Assembly (NCBI GenBank): GCA_963799625.1
Contig: CAWCXU010000002.1
Location: forward strand, 419,285-483,284
Source: an uncultured Actinomycetes bacterium
Lineage (GTDB): Bacteria; Actinomycetota; UBA4738; HRBIN12
DNA length: 64,000 nucleotides
Reading direction: 5' to 3'
The translations under genes were made by a program, and so were the position numbers. Below are positions 5,010 through 47,231 of the stretch, piece by piece. Position 1 is the stretch's first letter. Each line of letters starts with the position of its first letter. The notes under the pieces are model-generated. The model ran no database searches, was not told the origin of the DNA, and was given only the letters and a program-made list of their open reading frames with translations.

Positions 5010-5393
5010 CTTCGACTGCCTAGCAGACGAACTCGACCTGACCGTGTCCGCTCGACGTGTAGCAATCGGGGTCGCAGTAGTCGTCGGACGAGCACGGGTT
5101 GCAGTCTCCCTGGCCCACCGGACATGCCGCGTTGCAGATGTCGCTCGCATGGACCACCAAGCGCCGAGCCCGCTTGCGTACAAGCTGGCTTGCACCCGAA
5201 CGCGTTGGTGTCAGTCGGGTCTGAGTGGCAGCAGTTTCCCTGGGGCGGCGGGCCCGAAGCTCCGGTGGACGCCCTCGCGGCGCCCGCGACGACCGTCTGG
5301 ATCGCCGGAGCAGCGAAGATGACCACGCCGCCAGTAGCGGCCGCGCGCTTGATGAAGGACCGGCGGTTCACGCCTTGGCCCTCGGTGTGCTCA
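5006..5393 (-). CDS. Small Tat-signal secreted Cys-rich protein of unknown function, with an apparent frameshift near 5130
   Basis: A GTG start at 5393 is preceded by AAGGAGGGGG. The protein begins MENTEHTEGQGVNRRSFIKRAAATGGVVIFAAPAIQTVVAGAARA, where RRSFIK is a twin-arginine motif. It continues …GNCCHSDPTDTNAFGCKPACTQAGSALGGPC. The +1 frame then reads …ASDICNAACPVGQGDCNPCSSDDYCDPDCYTSSGHGQVEFVC*. Together these give 12 or more Cys in about 90 mature residues. Confidence 0.55.
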
Positions 5394-5620
5394 GTGTTCT
5401 CCACCTGAACCCCCTCCTTCTCTTGTCTGGAGCCCAGGCTAGGGACCCGGCTCGGCCGCCGAATCGCCGTGCTGACGTATCTTCCGTGACGGCCCCGGGC
5501 GGAGCGGCACTCCTCAAACCCGCTGGTCAGGGGCACCGGACGGCGCCCAACTACGACGAACAGCGTACGTCGCGCCTCGCACCCTTCCTGCGGGATGCCC
5601 GCCTGGGATACGCTCCCACG

Positions 5621-6840
5621 ATGCCCCCCAGCTTCGTGCACCGCGCCCTGATCGACGCCGCGCGTGATGAGCTGGATCCATCTCGGGTCGAGGGGGCCAC
5701 CGAGGCCGAGCGTCACGAGCTCCTCATCCGGAGCCGGGACCATGCGGTGCAGGGGCTGGTCGCCCGTTCGGTCCGCCGGGCCGGGGACCTCGAACCCTGG
5801 GCGCTCCCGTTCGTCCAGGACGCGATCGGGATCCGAGAGTCGCATGCACAGCACGTCCGGACGCTCCGGACCGCCTCGTTCGCCCTCGAACGAGCACGAG
5901 GTGCCGGGGCTCCTCATGAAGGGCGCGTCGCTGGTCGATCGCTACTACCACGACGACTCCCTCCGGGCGTACGGCGACGTCGACATGCTCGTTCCCTCCC
6001 AACGGTTCGCCGACGCGTTGTCGATCCTGGAGGAGGCCGGGTTCTCGATCCTCGACCGCAACTGGCACATGCTCCGTGCGGGATATGCGAGGCCAGCTCC
6101 ACCTGCGCTCCCCCGACGGTCACGACATGCTGGAGCTGCACTGGCATCCGATCAATCCGAGCCGGGTCCGCCACACCCTTTCGGTGACCGCGAACGACCT
6201 TTGGTCCGGCGCGTCGCGAACCCGAGTCGCGGGGCGGACGTGTGGGTGCCGCACACGTCCCGCGAGCTGGCCCACCTCTGCCTGCACGCCGCGCTGCACG
6301 GTTGTGACCGCCTGATCTGGCTGGTCGACATCCACAAGGTCATGGACTCCCCCGATCTCGACCTGGACGACCTGCAACGCACCGCACGTCACTGGGGGTT
6401 CGGCGCGGGGACCTATCTCGTGCTCGCCTTGGTCGATCGGTGGCTCGGGCTCTCGCAGCCCCTACGGGATCTCTCGCAGGCTCCACCCGGGCCGCGCCAC
6501 CCTCGCCGCGTTCCACCGGCTGGTCGACCGGTGGGACCTCGGCCGGCCCGCTCGCGACGCGCGGTTCCGGCAGCTGCTCTTCGCGACCGCGGCCGACGGC
6601 GTGGGGCGCCGCGCCAGGCTGACCTGGTCACTCGTGGTGCCGCCGGACGTCAGCGATCCGGATGCGGGCAGGGAGCCACTCGGCCCGCTGCTTTCCAGGA
6701 TGACGATCGGCGCGGCGACCAGGGTCCGGCACAAGCTCGACGAGCATGCCGAGGACGATGCGGCACCCGAATTCCTTCGGCGAGGGGACCCTGCCGTCGG
6801 ACGCGTCCGGTATCTGGCGCGCGTCGCATCCGAACGATAA
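5621..6840 (+). pseudogene. Nucleotidyltransferase family protein (PF14907-like, uncharacterised NTase), disrupted by four or more frame switches
   Basis: Family-typical segments fall in different frames. MPPSFVHRALIDAARDELDPSRVEG…LRTASFALERARGAG is in frame 2. …LLMKGASLVDRYYHDDSLRAYGDVDMLVPSQRFADALSILEEAGFSILDRNWHML is in frame 0. GQLHLRSPDGHDMLELHWHPINPSRVRHTLSVTANDLWSGASRTRVAG is in frame 1. ADVWVPHTSRELAHLCLHAALHGCDRLIWLVDIHKV…LGLSQPLRDL is in frame 0. …ATLAAFHRLVDRWDLGRPARDARFRQLLFATAADG…RVRYLARVASER* is in frame 1. The switches sit in G/C runs (for example ggtgccggggctcc and gcggggcggacg). Confidence 0.7.
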
Positions 6841-37500: not shown

Positions 37501-38246
37501 AGGCCTCCGCTGCGGTCACGACCGCGCGGCGCGGCCGCATCGGCGTGCGGGACCACGACCTCGTCGGCGACCCCGGCCATGTCCGGGAACAGGATCTTGA
37601 TCGCCCCGAACGCGATGACGGCCCCGACCACCTGGAACGCGATGAACCCCGGCACCGACGACGGCGCGATGCCGGCGAACGTGTTCGAGAACATCCGGGC
37701 GAACGTCACGGCGGGGTTCGCGAAGCTCGTCGACGACGTGAAGAAGTACGCCGCGGCGATGTAGCCGCCGACGGCGAACGGCACGAGCAGCGTCCGCCGC
37801 GAGCGCACCATGCCGAACACGACGAGCACGAGCCCGAAGGTCGCCACCACCTCGCCGAGCCACAGACCGTTGCCGCTCCGCACCTGGGTCGAGAGCTCAA
37901 CGGCGCGCAGGCCGAACATCAGGTTGGCGACGACCGCCCCGACGATGCCCCCCGTGATCTGCGCGACGACGTACACGAGCGCGTCGCCCGAACCGATCCC
38001 GCCGAAGACGAGATCGAGTCCGGTGATGACCGGGTTGAGGTGGGCGCCCGACACGGAGCCGAGCGCGAGGATGATCGCGACCAGCGCGGCGCCGGTGACC
38101 ACGGCGTTCTCGAAGAGCTCCAGGCCGACGTCGCCCGGACTGAGCTTCGCGGCCGCGATCCCCGAGCCGATCACCGCCATCACGAGGAACGCCGTTCCGA
38201 TGAACTCCGCCAAGGCGCGCCGGCCGATCGAAGGGGTCATCGTCAC
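37501..38246 (-). CDS. MIP-family channel (aquaglyceroporin, placed next to arsenic-resistance genes); native 3' end unclear
   Basis: …[10 protein letters not shown]… and …[10 protein letters not shown]… are the two NPA boxes across six TM segments. The 385-aa ORF 37089..38246 has no in-frame stop after TM6 and runs as Arg-rich junk over the downstream gene. A lost stop or a 3' frameshift is the likely cause. Confidence 0.75.
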
Positions 38247-38259
38247 TGCCTCGCACTGA

Positions 38260-39083
38260 TCAGCAGCAGGACCCTTGGATCAGCGGGAGATCCCGGTGCT
38301 GCGGCCCCGGTCCGCCGTCGGGCTCGATGCGCTTGGTCGCCTGGATGATCGCCGAGTGGATCCCCTCGATCGGTTCGTCGGTCGAGGTGATGCGAACGGC
38401 TTCGAACCCGGCGGCTCGCAATCCTGCCTCGAACTCGCCGAACGACAGGGCGCCGGCGATGCATCCGACGAACGTCCCTCGCTCGGCGCGCTCCTCGGGC
38501 GTGAGCGCGTCGTCCGCGACCACGTCGCTGATCCCGATCCGGCCCCCGGGCTCGCAGGACCCGGTGCATCTCGGCGAAGACGTTCGGCTTATCGGTCGAC
38601 AGGTTGACGACGCAGTTGGAGATGATCACGTCGATCGTGTTCGCCGGCAGCGGGACGTCCTCGATGTAGCCCTTCAGGAACTCGACGTTGGTCGCGCCCG
38701 CCTCGTCCCGGTTGCGGATCGCGAGCGCGAGCATCTCCTCGGTCATGTCGAGCCCGTACACCTTGCCGGTGGGACCGACGCGTTTCGCCGACAGCAGGAC
38801 GTCGATCCCGCCGCCCGAGCCGAGGTCGAGCACCGTCTCGCCCGGGTGAAGGTCGGCGACCGCGGTCGGGTTGCCGCAGCCGAGGCTCGCGAGCACGGCG
38901 CTCTCCGGCAACGCCCTCGCCCTCGAGCGCCTCGTACAGCTCCGGCCCGAACGCGTGGCCCTCCTCGGCGCACGTCGCGCCGGGGTGGCAGCAATCGCAC
39001 GCGACCCCCGAGCCGGTCAGCACGGCGGTCGCGGCCTCGCCGTAGCGGCTGCGGACCTCTTCGCGGAGCTCGGTGTCGGTCAT
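38260..39083 (-). pseudogene. arsM: Arsenite S-adenosylmethionine methyltransferase ArsM, disrupted by two frame switches
   Basis: The N-terminus MTDTELREEVRSRYGEAA…CDCC… is in ORF 38589..39083. The MTase core [57 protein letters not shown]…[14 protein letters not shown]…[10 protein letters not shown] is in ORF 38243..38911. The C-terminus …[32 protein letters not shown]… is in ORF 38260..38523. Confidence 0.7.
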
Positions 39084-39490
39084 CTCACGCCTCCTTGGTG
39101 GTCGAACACGTCGCGGAGACCCGCGAGCCCCGTCCGGTTGAGCGAGTAGTACGCCCAGGTGCCGCGCTGCTCCCGCTCGAGGAGCCCGACGTCGAGCAGC
39201 TTCTTCAGGTGGAAGCTGACGGTGCCCTGCGACAGGCCGAGGTGCGGCATGAAGTCGCAGACGCAGACCGGCTCGCCCGCGTTGGCGAGCAGGTTCACGA
39301 TCCGCAAGCGGTGGGGATCCGCGAGCGCCTTGAAGACCGCGGCGAGCGTGTCGGCCTGCTCGCGCGAGATGCCGGGCGCAGCCACGGGGCGGCAGCAGTC
39401 GACCGGCGCCAGCTGGAAGTTCCTTGCATCGAACGCGCTGTCACGGACCCTCCATCGACGAACGTCGATGAAGGACACTAGGCATCGCAT
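39080..39490 (-). CDS. arsR: ArsR/SmtB-family metalloregulator
   Basis: …AVFKALADPHRLRIVNLLANAGEPVCVCDFMPHLGLSQGTVSFHLKKLLDVGLL… has a winged HTH with a CVCD metal-site motif. It overlaps the arsM start. Confidence 0.8.
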   Translation of the reverse strand: MRCLVSFIDVRRWRVRDSAFDARNFQLAPVDCCRPVAAPGISREQADTLAAVFKALADPHRLRIVNLLANAGEPVCVCDFMPHLGLSQGTVSFHLKKLLDVGLLEREQRGTWAYYSLNRTGLAGLRDVFDHQGGVR

Positions 39491-41714: not shown

Positions 41715-42137
41715 CTACCGGAGTGGCTGTCGGAGCTCCTCCGCGAGCGAGCCCACGAGACGGTCGATCTCGTCGCGTATCGCGCGCACCTCGTCGAGCG
41801 AGCGCCCGGCGGGGTCGGGAAGCTCCCAGTCGAGGTACCGCCGCCCCGGGAACACGGGGCAGGCATCGCCGCATCCCATCGTCACGACGACGTCGGCGAC
41901 CTGCACGTCATCGACGGTCAACAGCCGAGGCACGACCCCCTCGAGGTCGATCCCGAGCTCGCCCATCGCCGCGACGACGTTCGCGTGCACCTCATCGGCC
42001 GGCGTGCTGCCGGCAGACCGGACGTCGATCCCGGGGGCCCGGCGCTCGAGCAGCGCTGCCGCCATCTGGGAGCGCCCGGCGTTGTGCACGCACACGAACA
42101 GGACGACGGGTCGACTACTGTCCGCCGCAGCGGTCAC
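41715..42137 (-). CDS. arsC: Arsenate reductase, LMW-PTP family ArsC
   Basis: VLFVCVHNAGRSQMAAALL… is the CX5R P-loop of the low-molecular-weight phosphatase-type ArsC. A C-terminal Cys pair (MGCGDACP) follows. Confidence 0.85.
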   Translation of the reverse strand: MTAAADSSRPVVLFVCVHNAGRSQMAAALLERRAPGIDVRSAGSTPADEVHANVVAAMGELGIDLEGVVPRLLTVDDVQVADVVVTMGCGDACPVFPGRRYLDWELPDPAGRSLDEVRAIRDEIDRLVGSLAEELRQPLR

Positions 42138-43183: not shown

Positions 43184-43337
43184 CCGCCCTAGGCGCTCTC
43201 CCAGGTGTCGCCTCAGATGATATGCCCGGCACGGTAGGGGCACCCGGTGACGCGGGGTCGACCGCAGCGAGAACGTTGGGTGGCGTCGGGATCGTGGGTC
43301 ACGACGGAGCGCTTCCCTGATGTGGCAACATCTCGGC

Positions 43338-43583
43338 ATGAGCGACGAACTCGTCCAGATCTGGTCCACCGGCGACGCGACGATCGCCGAGCTCACCCGG
43401 GCACGTCTCGAGGGCGAAGGCATCGACGTGCTCGTCAAGAGCAGCATGGGCGGCTCGAGCGCCTACCCGGTCGGACCCAGCTACCTCTTCGTGAAGGCCG
43501 ACCAGGAACAGGAAGCACGCGCGATCCTCGCGGCGATCGAGGCGGGCGAGTTCGCCCTGGATGAGGACGAAGACGTCAGTTAG
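43338..43583 (+). CDS. DUF2007-like small protein (putative signal-transducing protein fold)
   Basis: [72 protein letters not shown]… follows the DUF2007 pattern. Confidence 0.6.
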
Positions 43584-43978: not shown

Positions 43979-44665
43979 CTACTCCTCCGTCTCGGTCTTC
44001 TTCTTCGCCGCCGGCTTCGCCTTCGTGGCGCTCTTGGCCTTCGGCTTGGCGGCGGTCGTCTTCTTGGCGGCGCTCTTAGCCTTGGGCTTGGCCGCGGGCG
44101 TCTTCGGCTTCGCGGTGCTCGCCTTGGGCTTGGCCGCCGAGGCCTCGGGCTTCGGTGCCGCGCTCTTCGCCTTCGGCTTCGCGGCCGGTGCAGACGGCTC
44201 GGGCCTGGCCGGCAAACCGTTCCACGCGGGACGCTCGCCGAGCGCCAGCGCCACCGGCGCCTGGGCGGCGTGCGGATGCTCAGGGCCGGGCACCACGTGG
44301 AGCTTCTTGAGCATCTGGCGGCCGATGGTGTTCTTCGGCAGCATGCCGCGGACGGCCTTCTCGACGGCGGCCACGGGTCGCTTGGCCATCAGGTCCTTGT
44401 ACTTGACGGCGGTGATCCCGCCCGGATAGCCGGAGTGGCGGTACGCGTACTTGTCCTCGCCCTTGTTGCCGGTGAGCTCGATCTTGTCCGCGTTGACGAC
44501 GACCACGTGGTCGCCGGTGTCCATGTGCGGCGCGTACATCGGCTTGTGCTTGCCCCGCAGGATCGTCGCGACCTCGGAGGCGAGCCTGCCCAGCACGACG
44601 CCGCTGGCGTCCACGACGTACCAGCGGCGCTCGATGTGCTCAGGCTTGGGCGAATAGGTCTTCAT
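43979..44665 (-). CDS. rplM: 50S ribosomal protein L13 with an approximately 90-aa Lys/Ala/Pro-rich C-terminal extension
   Basis: The L13 core is [42 protein letters not shown]…[17 protein letters not shown]. It is followed by …[62 protein letters not shown]…, a histone-H1-like AKP repeat tail. Confidence 0.9.
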
Positions 44666-44732
44666 AACGTGCAGATGTCGGCCCGCACAGGGCCGACCGG
44701 TCACCAAGGTTACCTGGGCCGCCGCGAGGCCG

Positions 44733-44996
44733 TCAAAGCAGGATGAAGCTCGCGCAGATCACCGCGGTCGACACCAAAGCCCCCAACGCCGCAACGTTTC
44801 TCATCGACTCCGTCCCGTCGCGCTGCGCGACCGAACCTCCCGACAGCACGAACCCACAGATCCCGACGGCGAGGCCGACCGGTGCGCTCAGGAACACCAG
44901 CCCGACACCGAGCAGCGCCGCCACCAACCCGAGGAGCGACAGAGCCCCTGTGACCGACCTCAGCATGGCCGCTACCTCCTCATACAGGCGTCCCAC
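44733..44996 (-). CDS. Small hypothetical membrane protein (two to three TM segments) downstream of the ArsR/SmtB-like regulator
   Basis: [54 protein letters not shown]…[18 protein letters not shown] is an intact 87-aa ORF in apparent operon position 37 nt after the regulator. Confidence 0.45.
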
Positions 44997-45033
44997 CCAT
45001 AGAGACGCGTGGGACGGCCGAGAGGTGTCGCGG

Positions 45034-45435
45034 TTATCGAGTGCGGCGGCGGCCGAGGCGGAGCACGTCGGACAGCCGGCGTCGCGCCTCGTTGTTGAGC
45101 GAGTAGTAGACCCAGACCCCCCGCTTCTCGCGATCCAGGACGCCCGCCTCGTGCAGCTTCTTCAGGTGGAAGCTGACCGTGGGCTGCGATAGGCCCAACG
45201 GCTGCTCCAGGTCACAGCCACAGACCGTGTCGGCCTGGGTGGCCAGGATGTGCAGGATCCGGACGCGGGCGGGATCCCCGAGGGCGCGGAAGAGCTCCGC
45301 CGTCGCCAGCGCCTCCTCCTCGTTCAGCCCGGGATCGGCGATCGGCGCGCAGCACGCGACCGCGGAGGTGGGCTCGAGAACGGCGACCGGCTGACGCATC
45401 GGCATATATTGACAGACGTCGATATCTCGTGGCAA
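45034..45435 (-). CDS. ArsR/SmtB-family metal-sensing transcriptional regulator
   Basis: …AELFRALGDPARVRILHILATQADTVCGCDLEQPLGLSQPTVSFHLKKLHEAGVL… has a CGCD metal-site motif. There is also an N-terminal Cys pair (AVACCAPI). Confidence 0.8.
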   Translation of the reverse strand: MPRDIDVCQYMPMRQPVAVLEPTSAVACCAPIADPGLNEEEALATAELFRALGDPARVRILHILATQADTVCGCDLEQPLGLSQPTVSFHLKKLHEAGVLDREKRGVWVYYSLNNEARRRLSDVLRLGRRRTR

Positions 45436-45509
45436 CCTCGCCCGAGGCAGGTATCGATGAGCGTCGATGTCTGCTGATCACCCGCTGGAACACGGGAAAG
45501 GAGGCGCGC

Positions 45510-45554
45510 ATGCGGTACGGCGACGAGCCCTGCTGCCCGATCGGCTGCTGCTGA
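45510..45554 (+). CDS. Candidate 14-aa Cys-rich micro-ORF (MRYGDEPCCPIGCC) with a consensus Shine-Dalgarno sequence
   Basis: AAAGGAGG at 45497-45504, a 5-nt spacer, then ATG CGG TAC GGC GAC GAG CCC TGC TGC CCG ATC GGC TGC TGC TGA. It is divergent from the ArsR/SmtB-like gene and followed by a hairpin. Confidence 0.35.
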   Translation: MRYGDEPCCPIGCC

Positions 45555-45568
45555 TCGGGTCGCGCCGT

Positions 45569-45593
45569 CCGGAGGGACCGGCCACCCCTCCGG
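45569..45593. terminator. Hairpin downstream of both the micro-ORF and convergent truA
   Basis: ccggaggg-accggccac-ccctccgg is an 8-bp perfect stem with a 9-nt loop. It lies 6 nt before the truA stop (minus strand) and 15 nt after the micro-ORF stop. Confidence 0.5.
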
Positions 45594-45599
45594 GCCGCG

Positions 45600-46361
45600 C
45601 TAACCCCGGCGGCCGTACACCACGCGCTCGAGCGTGAGCCCGCGCGCCGGGGCCGCCTTGGGCGCCCTCGACCGATCGCGCGCGGCGAGGATCCGGCGAA
45701 CGTCGCTCGCCGTCAGCCGCCCTTGCCCCACGTCGACGAGCGTGCCGACGAGGATCCGCACCATCTGGTGCAGGAACGCGTTCGCCCGCAGGCCCACCGT
45801 GACAAGATCCCCATCGCGCCGGATCGTGAGCCGTTGCAGATCGCGCCGGGTCGATCGTCCCGCAACCGGACGCAGGCAGAAGCTCGTGAAGTCGTGCGTT
45901 CCGAGCAGCACCGCCGACGCCCGCCGCATCGCCGTGAGGTCGAGCTCCCTCGGCTGATGCCACATGAACCGACCCGTGAACGGATCGGGCACCAGGGACG
46001 TGTCGATCCTGTAGCGATACTCGCGGGCGCTGGCGGAGAAGCGAGCGTCGAAGCCATTCGCCGCCGCACGCACGTGCTGGATCGAAACCTCCGGCGCGAG
46101 CCGTCCGTTCAGGAACTCGCGGATCTGGGCGGGTGTTCGCGTCGAGCCCGTTCGGAAGGACGCGACCTGCCCGCGCGCGTGCACGCCGGCGTCGGTCCGA
46201 CCGGCGACCGACAGCGACACGGGCTCGCGCAACAGCTCCTCGAGCGCGTCGCCGAGCACGCCCTCGACCGTCCTGATCTCCGGATCACGCTGCGTGGCCC
46301 ACCCGCGGAAGGCCGTGCCGTCGTAGGCGAGATCCAGCCGGATCGTTCGAGGAACGTTCAC
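45600..46361 (-). CDS. truA: tRNA pseudouridine(38-40) synthase
   Basis: …IRLDLAYDGTAFRGWATQ…SVAGRTDAGVHARGQVASF… contains the catalytic Asp motif GRTDAGVHA. Confidence 0.9.
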   Translation of the reverse strand: MNVPRTIRLDLAYDGTAFRGWATQRDPEIRTVEGVLGDALEELLREPVSLSVAGRTDAGVHARGQVASFRTGSTRTPAQIREFLNGRLAPEVSIQHVRAAANGFDARFSASAREYRYRIDTSLVPDPFTGRFMWHQPRELDLTAMRRASAVLLGTHDFTSFCLRPVAGRSTRRDLQRLTIRRDGDLVTVGLRANAFLHQMVRILVGTLVDVGQGRLTASDVRRILAARDRSRAPKAAPARGLTLERVVYGRRG

Positions 46362-46399
46362 GCGACGGAGTATGTCGCGTCGGTCCCCCTCGGTACGGT

Positions 46400-46870
46400 G
46401 TGGGCATGGCGATCGACGTTCGACCCGCGACCACCGGCGACCTCGCCGGGGTCCGCCGGCTGCTCGGCCACCTGCACGAGCAGCCCGGCGACGTGGCCTG
46501 GTCGTCGGCGACCTGGGGCCGCATGCTCGGCGACCCGAACCGCACGCTCCTCGTGGCCGAGGACCGCGGCGAGTTCGCGGTCGGCACCGCCGACGTCCTG
46601 GTCGTGCCGAACCTGACGCATGACGGCGCGCCCTGGGCGCTCGTCGAGAACGTCGTGGTCGACCCGCAGTGGCGCCGGCGCGGCGTCGGCCGCGCGCTCC
46701 TTCGCCACGCCGTCCGCGTGGCCGACGACGCCGGCTGCTACAAGCTGCAGCTGACGTCGTCGAACCAGCGCGACGGCGCGCATCGGTTCTACGAGCGGCT
46801 CGGGTTCACCGCGGCCTCCACCGGGTTCCGGTGGTCGTTCCGGCAGCGCGAACGCGCCGGCGCGGCCTGA
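46400..46870 (+). CDS. GNAT-family N-acetyltransferase
   Basis: …VENVVVDPQWRRRGVGRALLRHAVRVADDAGCYKLQLTSS…RFYERLGF is the acetyl-CoA-binding motif A (Q/RxxGxG/A). Confidence 0.8.
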   Translation: MGMAIDVRPATTGDLAGVRRLLGHLHEQPGDVAWSSATWGRMLGDPNRTLLVAEDRGEFAVGTADVLVVPNLTHDGAPWALVENVVVDPQWRRRGVGRALLRHAVRVADDAGCYKLQLTSSNQRDGAHRFYERLGFTAASTGFRWSFRQRERAGAA

Positions 46871-46871
46871 A

Positions 46872-47231
46872 TCAGCTCTTCTCGACCAGCTCGATCCGCG
46901 CCATCTGGGCGCCGTCGCCCTTGCGCGGGCCGAGCTTCAGGATCCGCGTGTAGCCACCGGGACGCTCCTCGAACCGCGGCGCGATGTCGTGGAACAGCAG
47001 CGCCACCACGTCGCGGTCGGGGATGTCCTTCAGCACCTCACGGCGCGCGGCCAGGTCACCCTTCTTGGCCTTCGTGATCAGCTTCTCCGCGTAGGGGCGA
47101 AGGAGCTTCGCCTTGGCCTCGGTGGTGTTGATCCCCTGATGGATGAAGAGCTGGCTGGCGAGCGTCGACAGCATCAACCGCTGGTGGTCGGGGCCGGAGC
47201 CCAGGCGGGGTCCCTTCTTGGGGGTCGGCAC
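46872..47231 (-). CDS. rplQ: 50S ribosomal protein L17
   Basis: [64 protein letters not shown]… matches L17. Confidence 0.95.

Follow-up and report, generated by a model that had tools for sequence, protein, structure and literature searches.

The gap between the genes arsR1 and truA in a 64,000-nt stretch of contig CAWCXU010000002.1 from an uncultured Actinomycetes bacterium (hereafter the window, that is, the whole stretch of DNA analysed) holds a micro-gene of 14 sense codons that is read divergently from arsR1, a gene for a repressor of the ArsR/SmtB family. The features of this locus, including the Shine-Dalgarno (SD) sequence of the micro-gene and the promoters predicted for the two divergent genes, are:

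45510..45554, plus strand: micro-gene (ATG 45510-45512, 14 sense codons MRYGDEPCCPIGCC, TGA 45552-45554), read from the sequence
45497..45504, plus strand: SD sequence AAAGGAGG, read from the sequence, with a 5-nt spacer, CGCGC, before the ATG
45034..45399 (alternative start 45405), minus strand: arsR1, ArsR/SmtB-family repressor (Pfam HTH_5, 4.9e-13; NCBIfam NF033788, 90.5 bits against a cut-off of 55)
45407..45424, no strand: operator O1, TATTGACAGACGTCGATA, TATCGA-N6-TCGATA type, 1 mismatch
45452..45469, no strand: operator O2, TATCGATGAGCGTCGATG, TATCGA-N6-TCGATA type, 1 mismatch
45409..45438, plus strand: predicted micro-gene promoter (-35 TTGACA 45409-45414, 18-nt spacer, -10-like CAACCT 45433-45438)
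45406..45435, minus strand: predicted arsR promoter (-35 TTGCCA 45435-45430, 18-nt spacer, -10 CAATAT 45411-45406)
45562..45600, no strand: GC-rich hairpin between the stop of the micro-gene and that of truA
45600-46361, minus strand: truA, convergent with the micro-gene (Pfam PseudoU_synth_1; stop codon 45600-45602)

The SD sequence 5 nt before the ATG and the 14-codon open reading frame (ORF) proposed in the original prediction were confirmed by direct reading of the sequence. The encoded peptide contains four cysteines and no histidine among its 14 residues. The cysteines are arranged as C8-C9-x3-C13-C14 around a Pro-x-Gly turn, an arrangement that includes CC-x3-C and CC-x4-C spacings as well as two consecutive Cys codons, and the resulting CCPxGCC, which directly abuts the stop codon, is the conserved C-terminal motif of the micropeptide. 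Across the window, AAGGAGG followed by ATG after 4-9 nt occurs twice, against 0.15 occurrences expected, and the micro-gene is the only micro-ORF with a CC-x(2-4)-CC motif. No Rfam family matched positions 44000-47000 at a permissive threshold. Judged by its sequence, 45510-45554 is a genuine mini-gene with its own predicted ArsR-operated promoter, a near-perfect SD and its own putative terminator, and we consider it very probable that this is a real, translated gene under the control of ArsR.

Conservation and coding constraint

Relatives of the locus were first reached through the regulator only, by look-up of the exact protein and a scan of metagenomes with an ArsR alignment, so that the peptide could not bias the sample. 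The ArsR1 protein has thousands of relatives in metagenomes, and the close loci keep the gene order rpoA-rplQ-truA-gap-arsR-(arsM)-rplM-rpsI. At nine loci (the window and eight others, the latter with ArsR proteins 71-90% identical to that of the window), the strand that does not encode arsR carries, within the gap, an SD-led ORF of 14-15 codons; all nine of these ORFs terminate in CCPxGCC followed by the stop codon. The regulator-anchored peptides are:

MRYGDEPCCPIGCC (window)
MRYDNGPCCPPGCC
MRFGNEPCCPVGCC
MFLQDGGCCPPGCC
MRTDDGPCCPPGCC
MRIDSDPCCPHGCC
MVFCDQECCPPGCC
MALLCDGGCCPPGCC
MRFDEGPCCPGGCC (TAG stop)

At the six fixed codons of CCP-GCC, pairwise comparison of the nine loci gives 36 synonymous differences and no non-synonymous one (pS 0.30, pN 0), counts that are phylogenetically non-independent. 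The synonymous changes consist of TGC/TGT swaps and the use of all four Pro codons. Position x and codons 2-7 vary freely (pN ~ pS) while the length is held at 14-15 codons; the leader flanking the micro-ORF is variable in both length and sequence, and the non-coding flanks show indels and turnover. Change that is exclusively synonymous within the motif is what would be expected if the peptide is translated and its last seven residues are important. Thus, both checks proposed with the original prediction, conservation of the ORF and its SD in syntenic relatives and the pattern at synonymous sites, came out on the side of a coding sequence in the regulator-anchored loci. The ORF, SD, frame and CCPxGCC-stop are kept under coding constraint, in a setting of linkage to ArsR, a shared layout of operators and promoters, and ars genes.

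One syntenic relative (L204, positions 1-1500; ArsR 74% identical to that of the window) carries a toxin-antitoxin-like pair, PIN_10/HTH_66, inserted exactly at the position of the micro-gene. The insertion truncates operator O2 and leaves arsR-arsM intact, so that this locus represents a natural knockout of the micro-gene.

Breadth of the micropeptide family

A scan of species-representative genomes for a TGC/TGY-coded CCPxGCC-TGA with an ATG 9-30 nt upstream matched at least 119 stretches. The pattern is motif-biased: Pro, Gly, the final TGC and the TGA are fixed by construction in the loci derived from it. The SD, the linkage to ArsR, the orientation, the operators, the hairpin and additional CCP/CCD repeats were not fixed by the pattern. 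About 30 among the 119 matches listed lie next to an ArsR gene, whose product is 38-89% identical to that of the window, and are ORFs of 11-21 codons preceded by an SD. In all 34 loci analysed, the micro-ORF is divergent from the ArsR start, at a distance of 65-240 nt; three further ars-linked matches among those listed are located at tile edges or 3' of arsR-arsM. Altogether, at least 40 ars-linked loci encode at least 33 distinct peptides.

The peptide variants comprise 11-21 residues with 4-7 cysteines, a net charge of 0 to -3 and 7% hydrophobic residues; Asp, Pro and Gly abound in their N-terminal part, and neither a signal sequence nor a membrane segment was found in them. Variants beyond the regulator-anchored set include:

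MNDPCCPPDCCPPGCC
MDPDCCPPGCC
MNEGCCPSGCC
MCCDDCCPGGCC
MGTDCCDSDCCPNGCC
MSRPCCDPDCCPGGCC

In nearly all relatives, GGAGG, GAGG or GGGGG precedes the ATG by 5-10 nt, whereas the micro-ORF of L108, as called, has no SD. The carriers among the matches listed are unclassified Actinomycetota and 'Actinomycetes', Gaiellaceae, one Aeromicrobium metagenome-assembled genome (MAG) and two Chloroflexota. Because gene callers skip ORFs of 11-21 codons, the family is invisible in genome annotations.

Two recurrent groups of matches that were not linked to ArsR were rejected as family members, namely, MPAAARGCCPCGCC in cyanobacteria (L152 from Cyanobium, L084, L125, L198) and MRRPCCPPGCC in sphingomonads (L137, L160). 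Six-frame translations of two of these loci placed the L152 string out of frame within a SufD-like frame and the L160 string within a long membrane-transporter-like frame. The out-of-frame strings have the appearance of chance matches and call for caution in motif-only searches. A reading of the peptides as precursors of peptides that are made on the ribosome and modified afterwards (RiPPs) was also dropped, as no modifying enzymes were linked in any of the contexts inspected.

At another locus (L176, ~5200-6503), the micro-ORF MDREPCCPADCCPPGCC is located 3' of arsR-arsM on the same strand, and ArsM itself ends in QGCC before the stop. The arsM sequence of the window likewise ends in QGSCC-stop. 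These endings hint that the Cys tails of ArsM and the free peptide might be linked in evolution.

Promoters and operators

O1 and O2 are the only 18-bp sites of the TATCGA-N6-TCGATA type with no more than one mismatch in the window. O1 overlaps the -35 element of the micro-gene and the -10 element of arsR, and occupies the same position in most of the related loci. O2, which lies just 3' of the predicted -10 in the 5' leader of the micro-gene, is a perfect palindrome in many relatives, for example, GTATCGACACTCATCGATAC. An SmtB-type 12-2-12 operator, for which a search had been proposed, is not present at the locus, which instead contains these two 6-6-6 palindromes.

The divergent promoters appear to be exact mirror images, each -35 overlapping the -10 of the other (45399-45440 in the window), with the micro-gene promoter about 65 nt upstream of the ATG of the micro-ORF. 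On this reading, O1 takes up the spacer common to both promoters, with O2 lying over the point where the micro-gene transcript starts; we infer that ArsR1 binds to both. The ATG of arsR, at 45399, lies 7 nt past the -10, which suggests a leaderless arsR mRNA. A consensus scan of 44600-46000 for promoters and terminators called nothing; the micro-gene promoter was missed because its -10 is not TATAAT-like, and both promoters were predicted from conservation instead.

Most of the 34 intergenic regions follow the same plan: arsR start, ATATTGACA, N4, RTCGATR, ~7 nt, GGCAAC(N)T, ATCGAC-N4-ATCGATAC, a variable leader, SD and ATG. The string of the micro-gene promoter, ATATTGACA followed by GGCAAC(N)T, and the compact bidirectional design as a whole are kept in most of the 34 loci; the arrangement on the arsR side, CAT-(N6)-ATATTGACA, is conserved across loci. 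The regulatory layout is conserved from 38% to 100% ArsR identity.

The same type of operator is found upstream of plasmid-borne ArsR genes of cultured Arthrobacter, Rathayibacter, Streptomyces, Rhodococcus and Mycolicibacterium; the six loci inspected among 23 plasmid ArsR relatives of cultured Actinomycetes have this operator type and no micro-ORF. Where the divergent slot is occupied, it contains a gene for an arsenic transporter in Rathayibacter (L213), a gene for a 56-residue hypothetical protein in Streptomyces (L215) and, as read from the translation, an apparent oxidoreductase-like ORF in Mycolicibacterium (L217). The presence of ordinary genes in the divergent slot of the plasmid relatives indicates that the micro-gene occupies the slot of an ArsR-controlled effector.

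Hairpin and transcription unit

The 8-bp GC stem originally noted after the stop codon, CCGGAGGG/CCCTCCGG at 45569-45576 / 45586-45593, is present as the core of a longer hairpin, which consists of a 10-bp inner stem (45567-45576 / 45586-45595) with a 9-nt loop and a 4-bp outer stem (45562-45565 / 45597-45600), and touches the stop codon of truA. In this GC-rich DNA, the window hairpin is only weakly better than shuffled sequences (z -2.0 over 131 nt and z -1.4 over 60 nt). Most loci have a hairpin no more than 60 nt from the stop, with an uninterrupted stem of at least 8 bp in 28 of 34 and z <= -2 in 26 of 34, and the hairpin sequence differs among the sub-clades. The case for a real hairpin therefore comes from its recurrence in relatives and not from folding of the window sequence. 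No U-tract was found after the hairpin in the scan of 44600-46000. Terminators without a U-tract are common in Actinobacteria, and the hairpin is probably a terminator of this kind, which could serve either direction of transcription.

A convergent gene comes next in the window and at no fewer than 17 other loci; this gene is truA in the clade of the window, and unrelated genes are found in its place in L089, L107, L127, L178 and L201. Elsewhere, the hairpin is followed by a gene on the same strand, either glmM (the MNDPCC/MDPDCC clade) or an apparent ArsR-ArsC fusion (L157, L190). Given that the hairpin is present whatever the orientation of the next gene, the transcription unit is normally monocistronic. 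The exception is L179, where arsC starts 9 nt after the stop of the micro-ORF, forming an operon.

The regulator and its arsenic context

Cys19-Cys20 and Cys63/Cys65 of ArsR1 (the latter in CGCD, helix alpha-3) are invariant in 28 relatives. An N-terminal CC together with CxC is present in 33 of the 34 partner regulators; the Chloroflexota regulators have CxCDFxECC instead. The best solved relative of ArsR1 is the As(III) sensor CgArsR (6j0e; phmmer E-value 8.6e-17), and in the phmmer alignment, its ligands Cys15-Cys16 align with the N-terminal Cys-Cys of ArsR1. The CxC of ArsR1 is located at the alpha-3 position of R773/CadC. The types of As(III) sites in ArsR proteins have been described (PMC11868830), and the effector of ArsR1 is most likely a trivalent metalloid.

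In relatives, arsR is followed by arsM (NCBIfam NF008823, 291.7 bits against a curated cut-off of 263); other loci encode ArsC-like proteins of the low-molecular-weight (LMW) phosphatase type, which match arsenate-reductase models below the curated cut-offs, or a MIP channel (aquaporin). Some of the ArsC-like genes are apparently in one frame with ArsR, with both parts matched by NCBIfam only in L157. At 24 of the 34 loci, the DNA retrieved includes an arsM, arsC or MIP gene no more than ~5 kb from the micro-gene, and about 10 loci are bare pairs of arsR and micro-gene among unrelated genes. In the closest clade of the window, arsR1 is directly followed by rplM, with no adjacent arsM. The original prediction had framed the locus in terms of Zn, Cd and Cu; the context speaks for arsenic instead, judging from arsM, LMW-phosphatase-type arsC, aquaporin and the Cys-Cys aligned to the CgArsR ligands.

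Proposed function and alternatives

We propose, with a probability of about 55% and by analogy with characterized thiol sites, that the micropeptide is an ArsR-derepressed sink or carrier for arsenicals, that is, As(III) and/or methylarsenite. The inducer, transcription start sites, translation, metalloid binding and physiological role that we infer for the micro-gene from sequence would combine as follows. Without metalloid, an ArsR1 dimer would occupy both TATCGA-N6-TCGATA operators, which overlap the back-to-back mirror-image promoters, and would repress its own gene along with the micro-gene. Binding of As(III), and possibly of methylarsenite or Sb(III), to the Cys-Cys/CxC site of ArsR1 would open both promoters, and the acidic, soluble, cytosolic peptide of 14 residues would then be made abundantly. 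Its two vicinal Cys pairs, joined by the Pro-x-Gly turn, would capture the metalloid, either in an AsS3 site formed by three of the four thiols or with one R-As per Cys pair. Such capture would lower free metalloid and protect cellular thiols, and the peptide may also pass the metalloid to ArsM or to an exporter. Considering the consensus -35, the near-perfect SD and the thiol motif, an abundant, derepressible thiol peptide appears to be the most economical model.

Characterized arsenic sites provide the chemical precedents. The 10-mer NCCHGTRDCA of AfArsR (CC-x5-C) folds as it binds As(III), which it coordinates in an AsS3 site (logK 6.35 at pH 7.5; PMC11212059). The complete site is Cys95-Cys96-Cys102 in AfArsR and Cys15-Cys16 plus Cys55 in CgArsR (PMC11868830), and a title cited in PMC10820871 gives Cys12-Cys13-Cys18 as the residues used by ArsD. 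A synthetic CCPGCC tag binds biarsenicals (PMC5638890). A more specific version of the sink-or-carrier proposal, which we regard as speculative and rather unlikely, is that the micropeptide is a natural counterpart of this tetracysteine tag, in which each Cys pair would clamp one trivalent organoarsenical, with 2-3 methylarsenite per peptide. The micropeptide would then protect soil Actinomycetota against a methylarsenite 'antibiotic' produced by neighbours or by their own ArsM, and it might present arsenic to ArsM or an exporter. If this were true, the micro-gene would encode the smallest known dedicated resistance-gene product and would represent a new class of ars gene.

Several points weigh against the sink-or-carrier proposal. 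Products as short as 11-14 residues may not be stable in vivo, and the buffering of arsenic would demand abundance. The third ligand of CgArsR, Cys55, is not aligned with the CGC of ArsR1 and falls four residues before it, and the Cys pattern of ArsR1 also fits a CadC-like alpha-3N site for Cd, Pb or Zn. As Pro and Gly are conserved by construction in the pattern-derived loci, only the nine regulator-anchored loci are unbiased, and it is among these that the pairwise counts are non-independent. Every carrier found is an uncultured MAG. The micro-ORF is absent from the syntenic relatives L204, L208 and L210/211 (ArsR identity of 70-74%) and is also missing in L003. None of the 70 metagenome ArsR relatives at 66% identity or less has the micro-ORF, and no other SD-led Cys-rich micro-ORF was found upstream of these 70 distant relatives. 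Given these absences, the micro-gene is clade-restricted, patchy and dispensable.

The same Cys pattern of the regulator would suit a generic mini-metallothionein for Cd, Zn, Pb, Cu(I) or Hg, with ArsR1 as a CadC/SmtB-like metal sensor. The N-terminal CC and the alpha-3 CxC resemble the alpha-3N site of CadC, structures of CadC and SmtB are among the PDB matches, thiol peptides have a much higher affinity for Hg(II) than for As(III) (PMC11212059), the acidic residues beside the cysteines would suit cations, and the DNA retrieved for about 10 loci is free of ars genes. However, the partner genes, where present, are arsM, arsC or aquaporin, no gene for a metal ATPase or CDF protein was found beside the micro-gene-linked regulators inspected, the closest solved relative of ArsR1 is the As(III) sensor CgArsR with its Cys-Cys aligned, and the peptide lacks His and is unlike the SmtA/BmtA fold, all of which makes a generic metal-binding role improbable. 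A regulatory role, in which the peptide would act as a modulator or metallochaperone (bringing arsenic to the N-terminal arm of ArsR or to ArsM, or competing with them), or else as a nascent chain that senses arsenic and arrests at the stop codon, likewise has a low probability in our assessment. Its appeal comes from the resemblance of the peptide to the N-terminal arm of the regulator (ACCAPIADPG in ArsR1, PCCPIGCC in the peptide, with CCPP shared by the two proteins in the MNDPCCPPDCCPPGCC clade) and to the ArsM N-terminus, CCDGPDPCC. Furthermore, conservation is concentrated in the last seven residues, which abut the stop, much as conservation is concentrated near the stop in arrest peptides such as TnaC, and 17 of the 33 variants contain PPG, a stalling motif. 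Position x, however, is often not Pro, a promoter and an SD of such strength point to expression in bulk, and an arrest peptide needs a downstream target, whereas a hairpin and a convergent gene follow in the window and at many loci; in addition, the closest clade of the window keeps the micro-gene without an adjacent arsM.

A further possibility, close to the leader-peptide alternative of the original prediction, is that the consecutive Cys codons form a cis-acting attenuator that reads the supply of Cys-tRNA or thiols, with the hairpin immediately after the ORF as the controlled terminator. In M. smegmatis, a pair of adjacent Cys codons is enough for attenuation (10.1101/834739), and a same-strand gene does follow in some loci, namely, glmM in the MNDPCC clade and arsC in L157, L190 and L179. 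We nevertheless find attenuation very unlikely. With truA convergent behind the hairpin, the window has nothing downstream for a leader peptide to control, and the same applies to the other loci with a convergent gene; where a same-strand gene is present, the hairpin separates it from the ORF. Moreover, the ORF is SD-led with a leader of ~65 nt and not leaderless, Pro and Gly are invariant and the motif changes only synonymously, although a pure Cys-codon counter needs neither, no alternative anti-terminator pairing was seen, and no cysteine-biosynthesis genes are linked. Finally, the ORF is very short, GC-rich DNA is rich in open frames, the window hairpin alone barely beats shuffles and some CCPxGCC matches elsewhere are out of frame, all of which could point to a chance ORF or a non-coding RNA element. 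This view is extremely unlikely to be correct: frame, length, SD, ATG and stop are kept over at least 40 loci while the non-coding flanks turn over, the motif changes synonymously only, and there is no Rfam match at the locus. The chance-ORF alternative entertained at the outset is effectively refuted by the conserved SD-led ORFs and the synonymous-only change.

Comparison with known systems

The analogy with smtB-smtA that was drawn originally holds for the architecture and the logic, probably fails for the metal and fails for the type of operator. As in smtB-smtA, a repressor of the ArsR/SmtB family is encoded divergently from a small Cys-rich product, the operators lie between the two genes, and the ligand sequestered by the product is presumed to act as the inducer. 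The micropeptide, at 11-21 residues (14 in the window), is about four times smaller than SmtA/BmtA, which have ~55 residues, and in place of their Cys9His2 cluster it has vicinal Cys pairs, no His and no zinc-finger-like fold. The smtB-smtA system is cyanobacterial, with an operator of imperfect 12-2-12 inverted repeats in a zinc context, whereas the carriers of the micro-gene belong to Actinomycetota and Chloroflexota, and its operator is of the 6-6-6 type in a context of arsenic genes. The peptide thus would work like the product of an smtB-smtA system yet falls outside SmtA/BmtA by size, composition and operator.

ArsR1 shares the winged-helix domain and the N-terminal vicinal Cys pair with As(III) sensors of the CgArsR type. 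The motif of the micropeptide is similar to the As(III) S3 sites of ArsD, AfArsR and CgArsR in combining Cys-Cys with a further Cys 3-5 residues away. These sites, however, are parts of folded proteins of 100-120 residues, the ArsA chaperone or repressors, whereas here, the motif is the whole product. ArsD in particular is a thioredoxin-fold protein of ~120 residues encoded together with arsA, whereas the 14-residue micropeptide has arsM, arsC and MIP genes as its ars-type neighbours; neither arsA nor arsD was noticed beside the micro-gene, and no search aimed at them was made. By analogy, the chemistry of the micropeptide would resemble that of the ArsD and ArsR sites, and the micropeptide belongs to neither family.

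The synthetic tag CCPGCC (FlAsH/ReAsH) has the same two vicinal Cys pairs split by a Pro...Gly turn. The tag, CC-PG-CC, is man-made, whereas the natural motif, CC-P-x-G-CC, is one residue longer and C-terminal, and forms part of a free peptide that may likewise bind arsenicals. The polycysteine short ORFs of mycobacteria (10.1101/834739) are also unannotated actinobacterial short ORFs with consecutive Cys codons. They are leaderless, cis-acting and located upstream of cysteine-metabolism operons, whereas the micro-gene is SD-led, has ArsR operators and its own putative terminator, usually lacks a downstream gene, and is constrained at non-Cys residues as well. Phytochelatins, (gamma-Glu-Cys)n-Gly, are, like the micropeptide, small acidic thiol peptides and are cytosolic chelators of As(III) and Cd, but they are synthesized from glutathione by an enzyme and lack vicinal Cys pairs, whereas the micropeptide is gene-encoded.

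Comparison of a 21-residue variant and of a concatenation of two variants with NCBIfam identified no family. The strings CCPPGCC, CCPSGCC and CCPEGCC were absent from the roughly 8 million open-access full texts searched, where CCPGCC occurs only as the synthetic tag, and keyword searches of the open-access literature yielded nothing on a Cys-rich small ORF linked to ArsR. Few bacterial stress systems have been catalogued as thoroughly as arsenic resistance, for which many ars genes have been named; to our knowledge, none of these encodes a thiol micropeptide. Should the peptide bind arsenicals, no smaller ribosomal product that binds a metal or metalloid would be known, and the locus would constitute an arsenic analogue of the SmtB-SmtA circuit and a source of a genetically encodable chelator or biosensor part with a matched repressor, operator and compact bidirectional promoter.

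Neighbouring genes

The surroundings of the locus in the window include the following genes:

39080-39490, minus strand: arsR2, 53% identical to arsR1 and with the same Cys pattern, in a module 6 kb away
38589-39083, 38243-38911 and 38260-38523 (overall 38243-39083), minus strand: arsM, spread over three reading frames
41715-42137, minus strand: ArsC-like gene of the LMW phosphatase type (CVHNAGRSQMA motif)
43320-43583, plus strand: DUF2007 gene
43979-44707, minus strand: rplM (ribosomal protein L13)
44733-44996, minus strand: small hydrophobic membrane ORF of 77-87 residues, just 3' of arsR1, with a likelier start at ATG 44966, behind GGAGG

The arsR2-arsM module (38243-39490) contains an operator-like palindrome, CATCGACGAACGTCGATG, at 39453-39470, and no micro-ORF was found there. 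The split arsM of the window is either a pseudogene or the result of indel errors in a long-read assembly. In two relatives represented by long-read MAG contigs (L001, L002), the gene calls break up housekeeping genes such as rpoA, rpsM and rpsK, which suggests frequent indel errors and is relevant to judging the frameshifted arsM of the window.

The pair of ArsC-like and DUF2007 genes is located between the glmM-side genes and rpsI and recurs by the ribosomal cluster in relatives, indicating that ars genes are embedded in the rplM-rpsI/truA neighbourhood across the lineage. The small membrane ORF occupies the place that arsM has in relatives. It was initially suspected to be the regulated effector, a role that its distribution does not bear out, as it is no conserved partner of the regulator: the C-terminal ~25-50 residues are recognisable as remnants in three close relatives (L174, L005, L149), and the ORF is absent in three others (L004, L113, L207). 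It looks like a decaying or very young gene. The L13 protein encoded by rplM has a C-terminal tail of ~90 residues that is rich in Lys, Ala and Pro and contains repeats, and the L13 products of L001 and L003 show a weak match to Pfam HC2 (histone H1-like).

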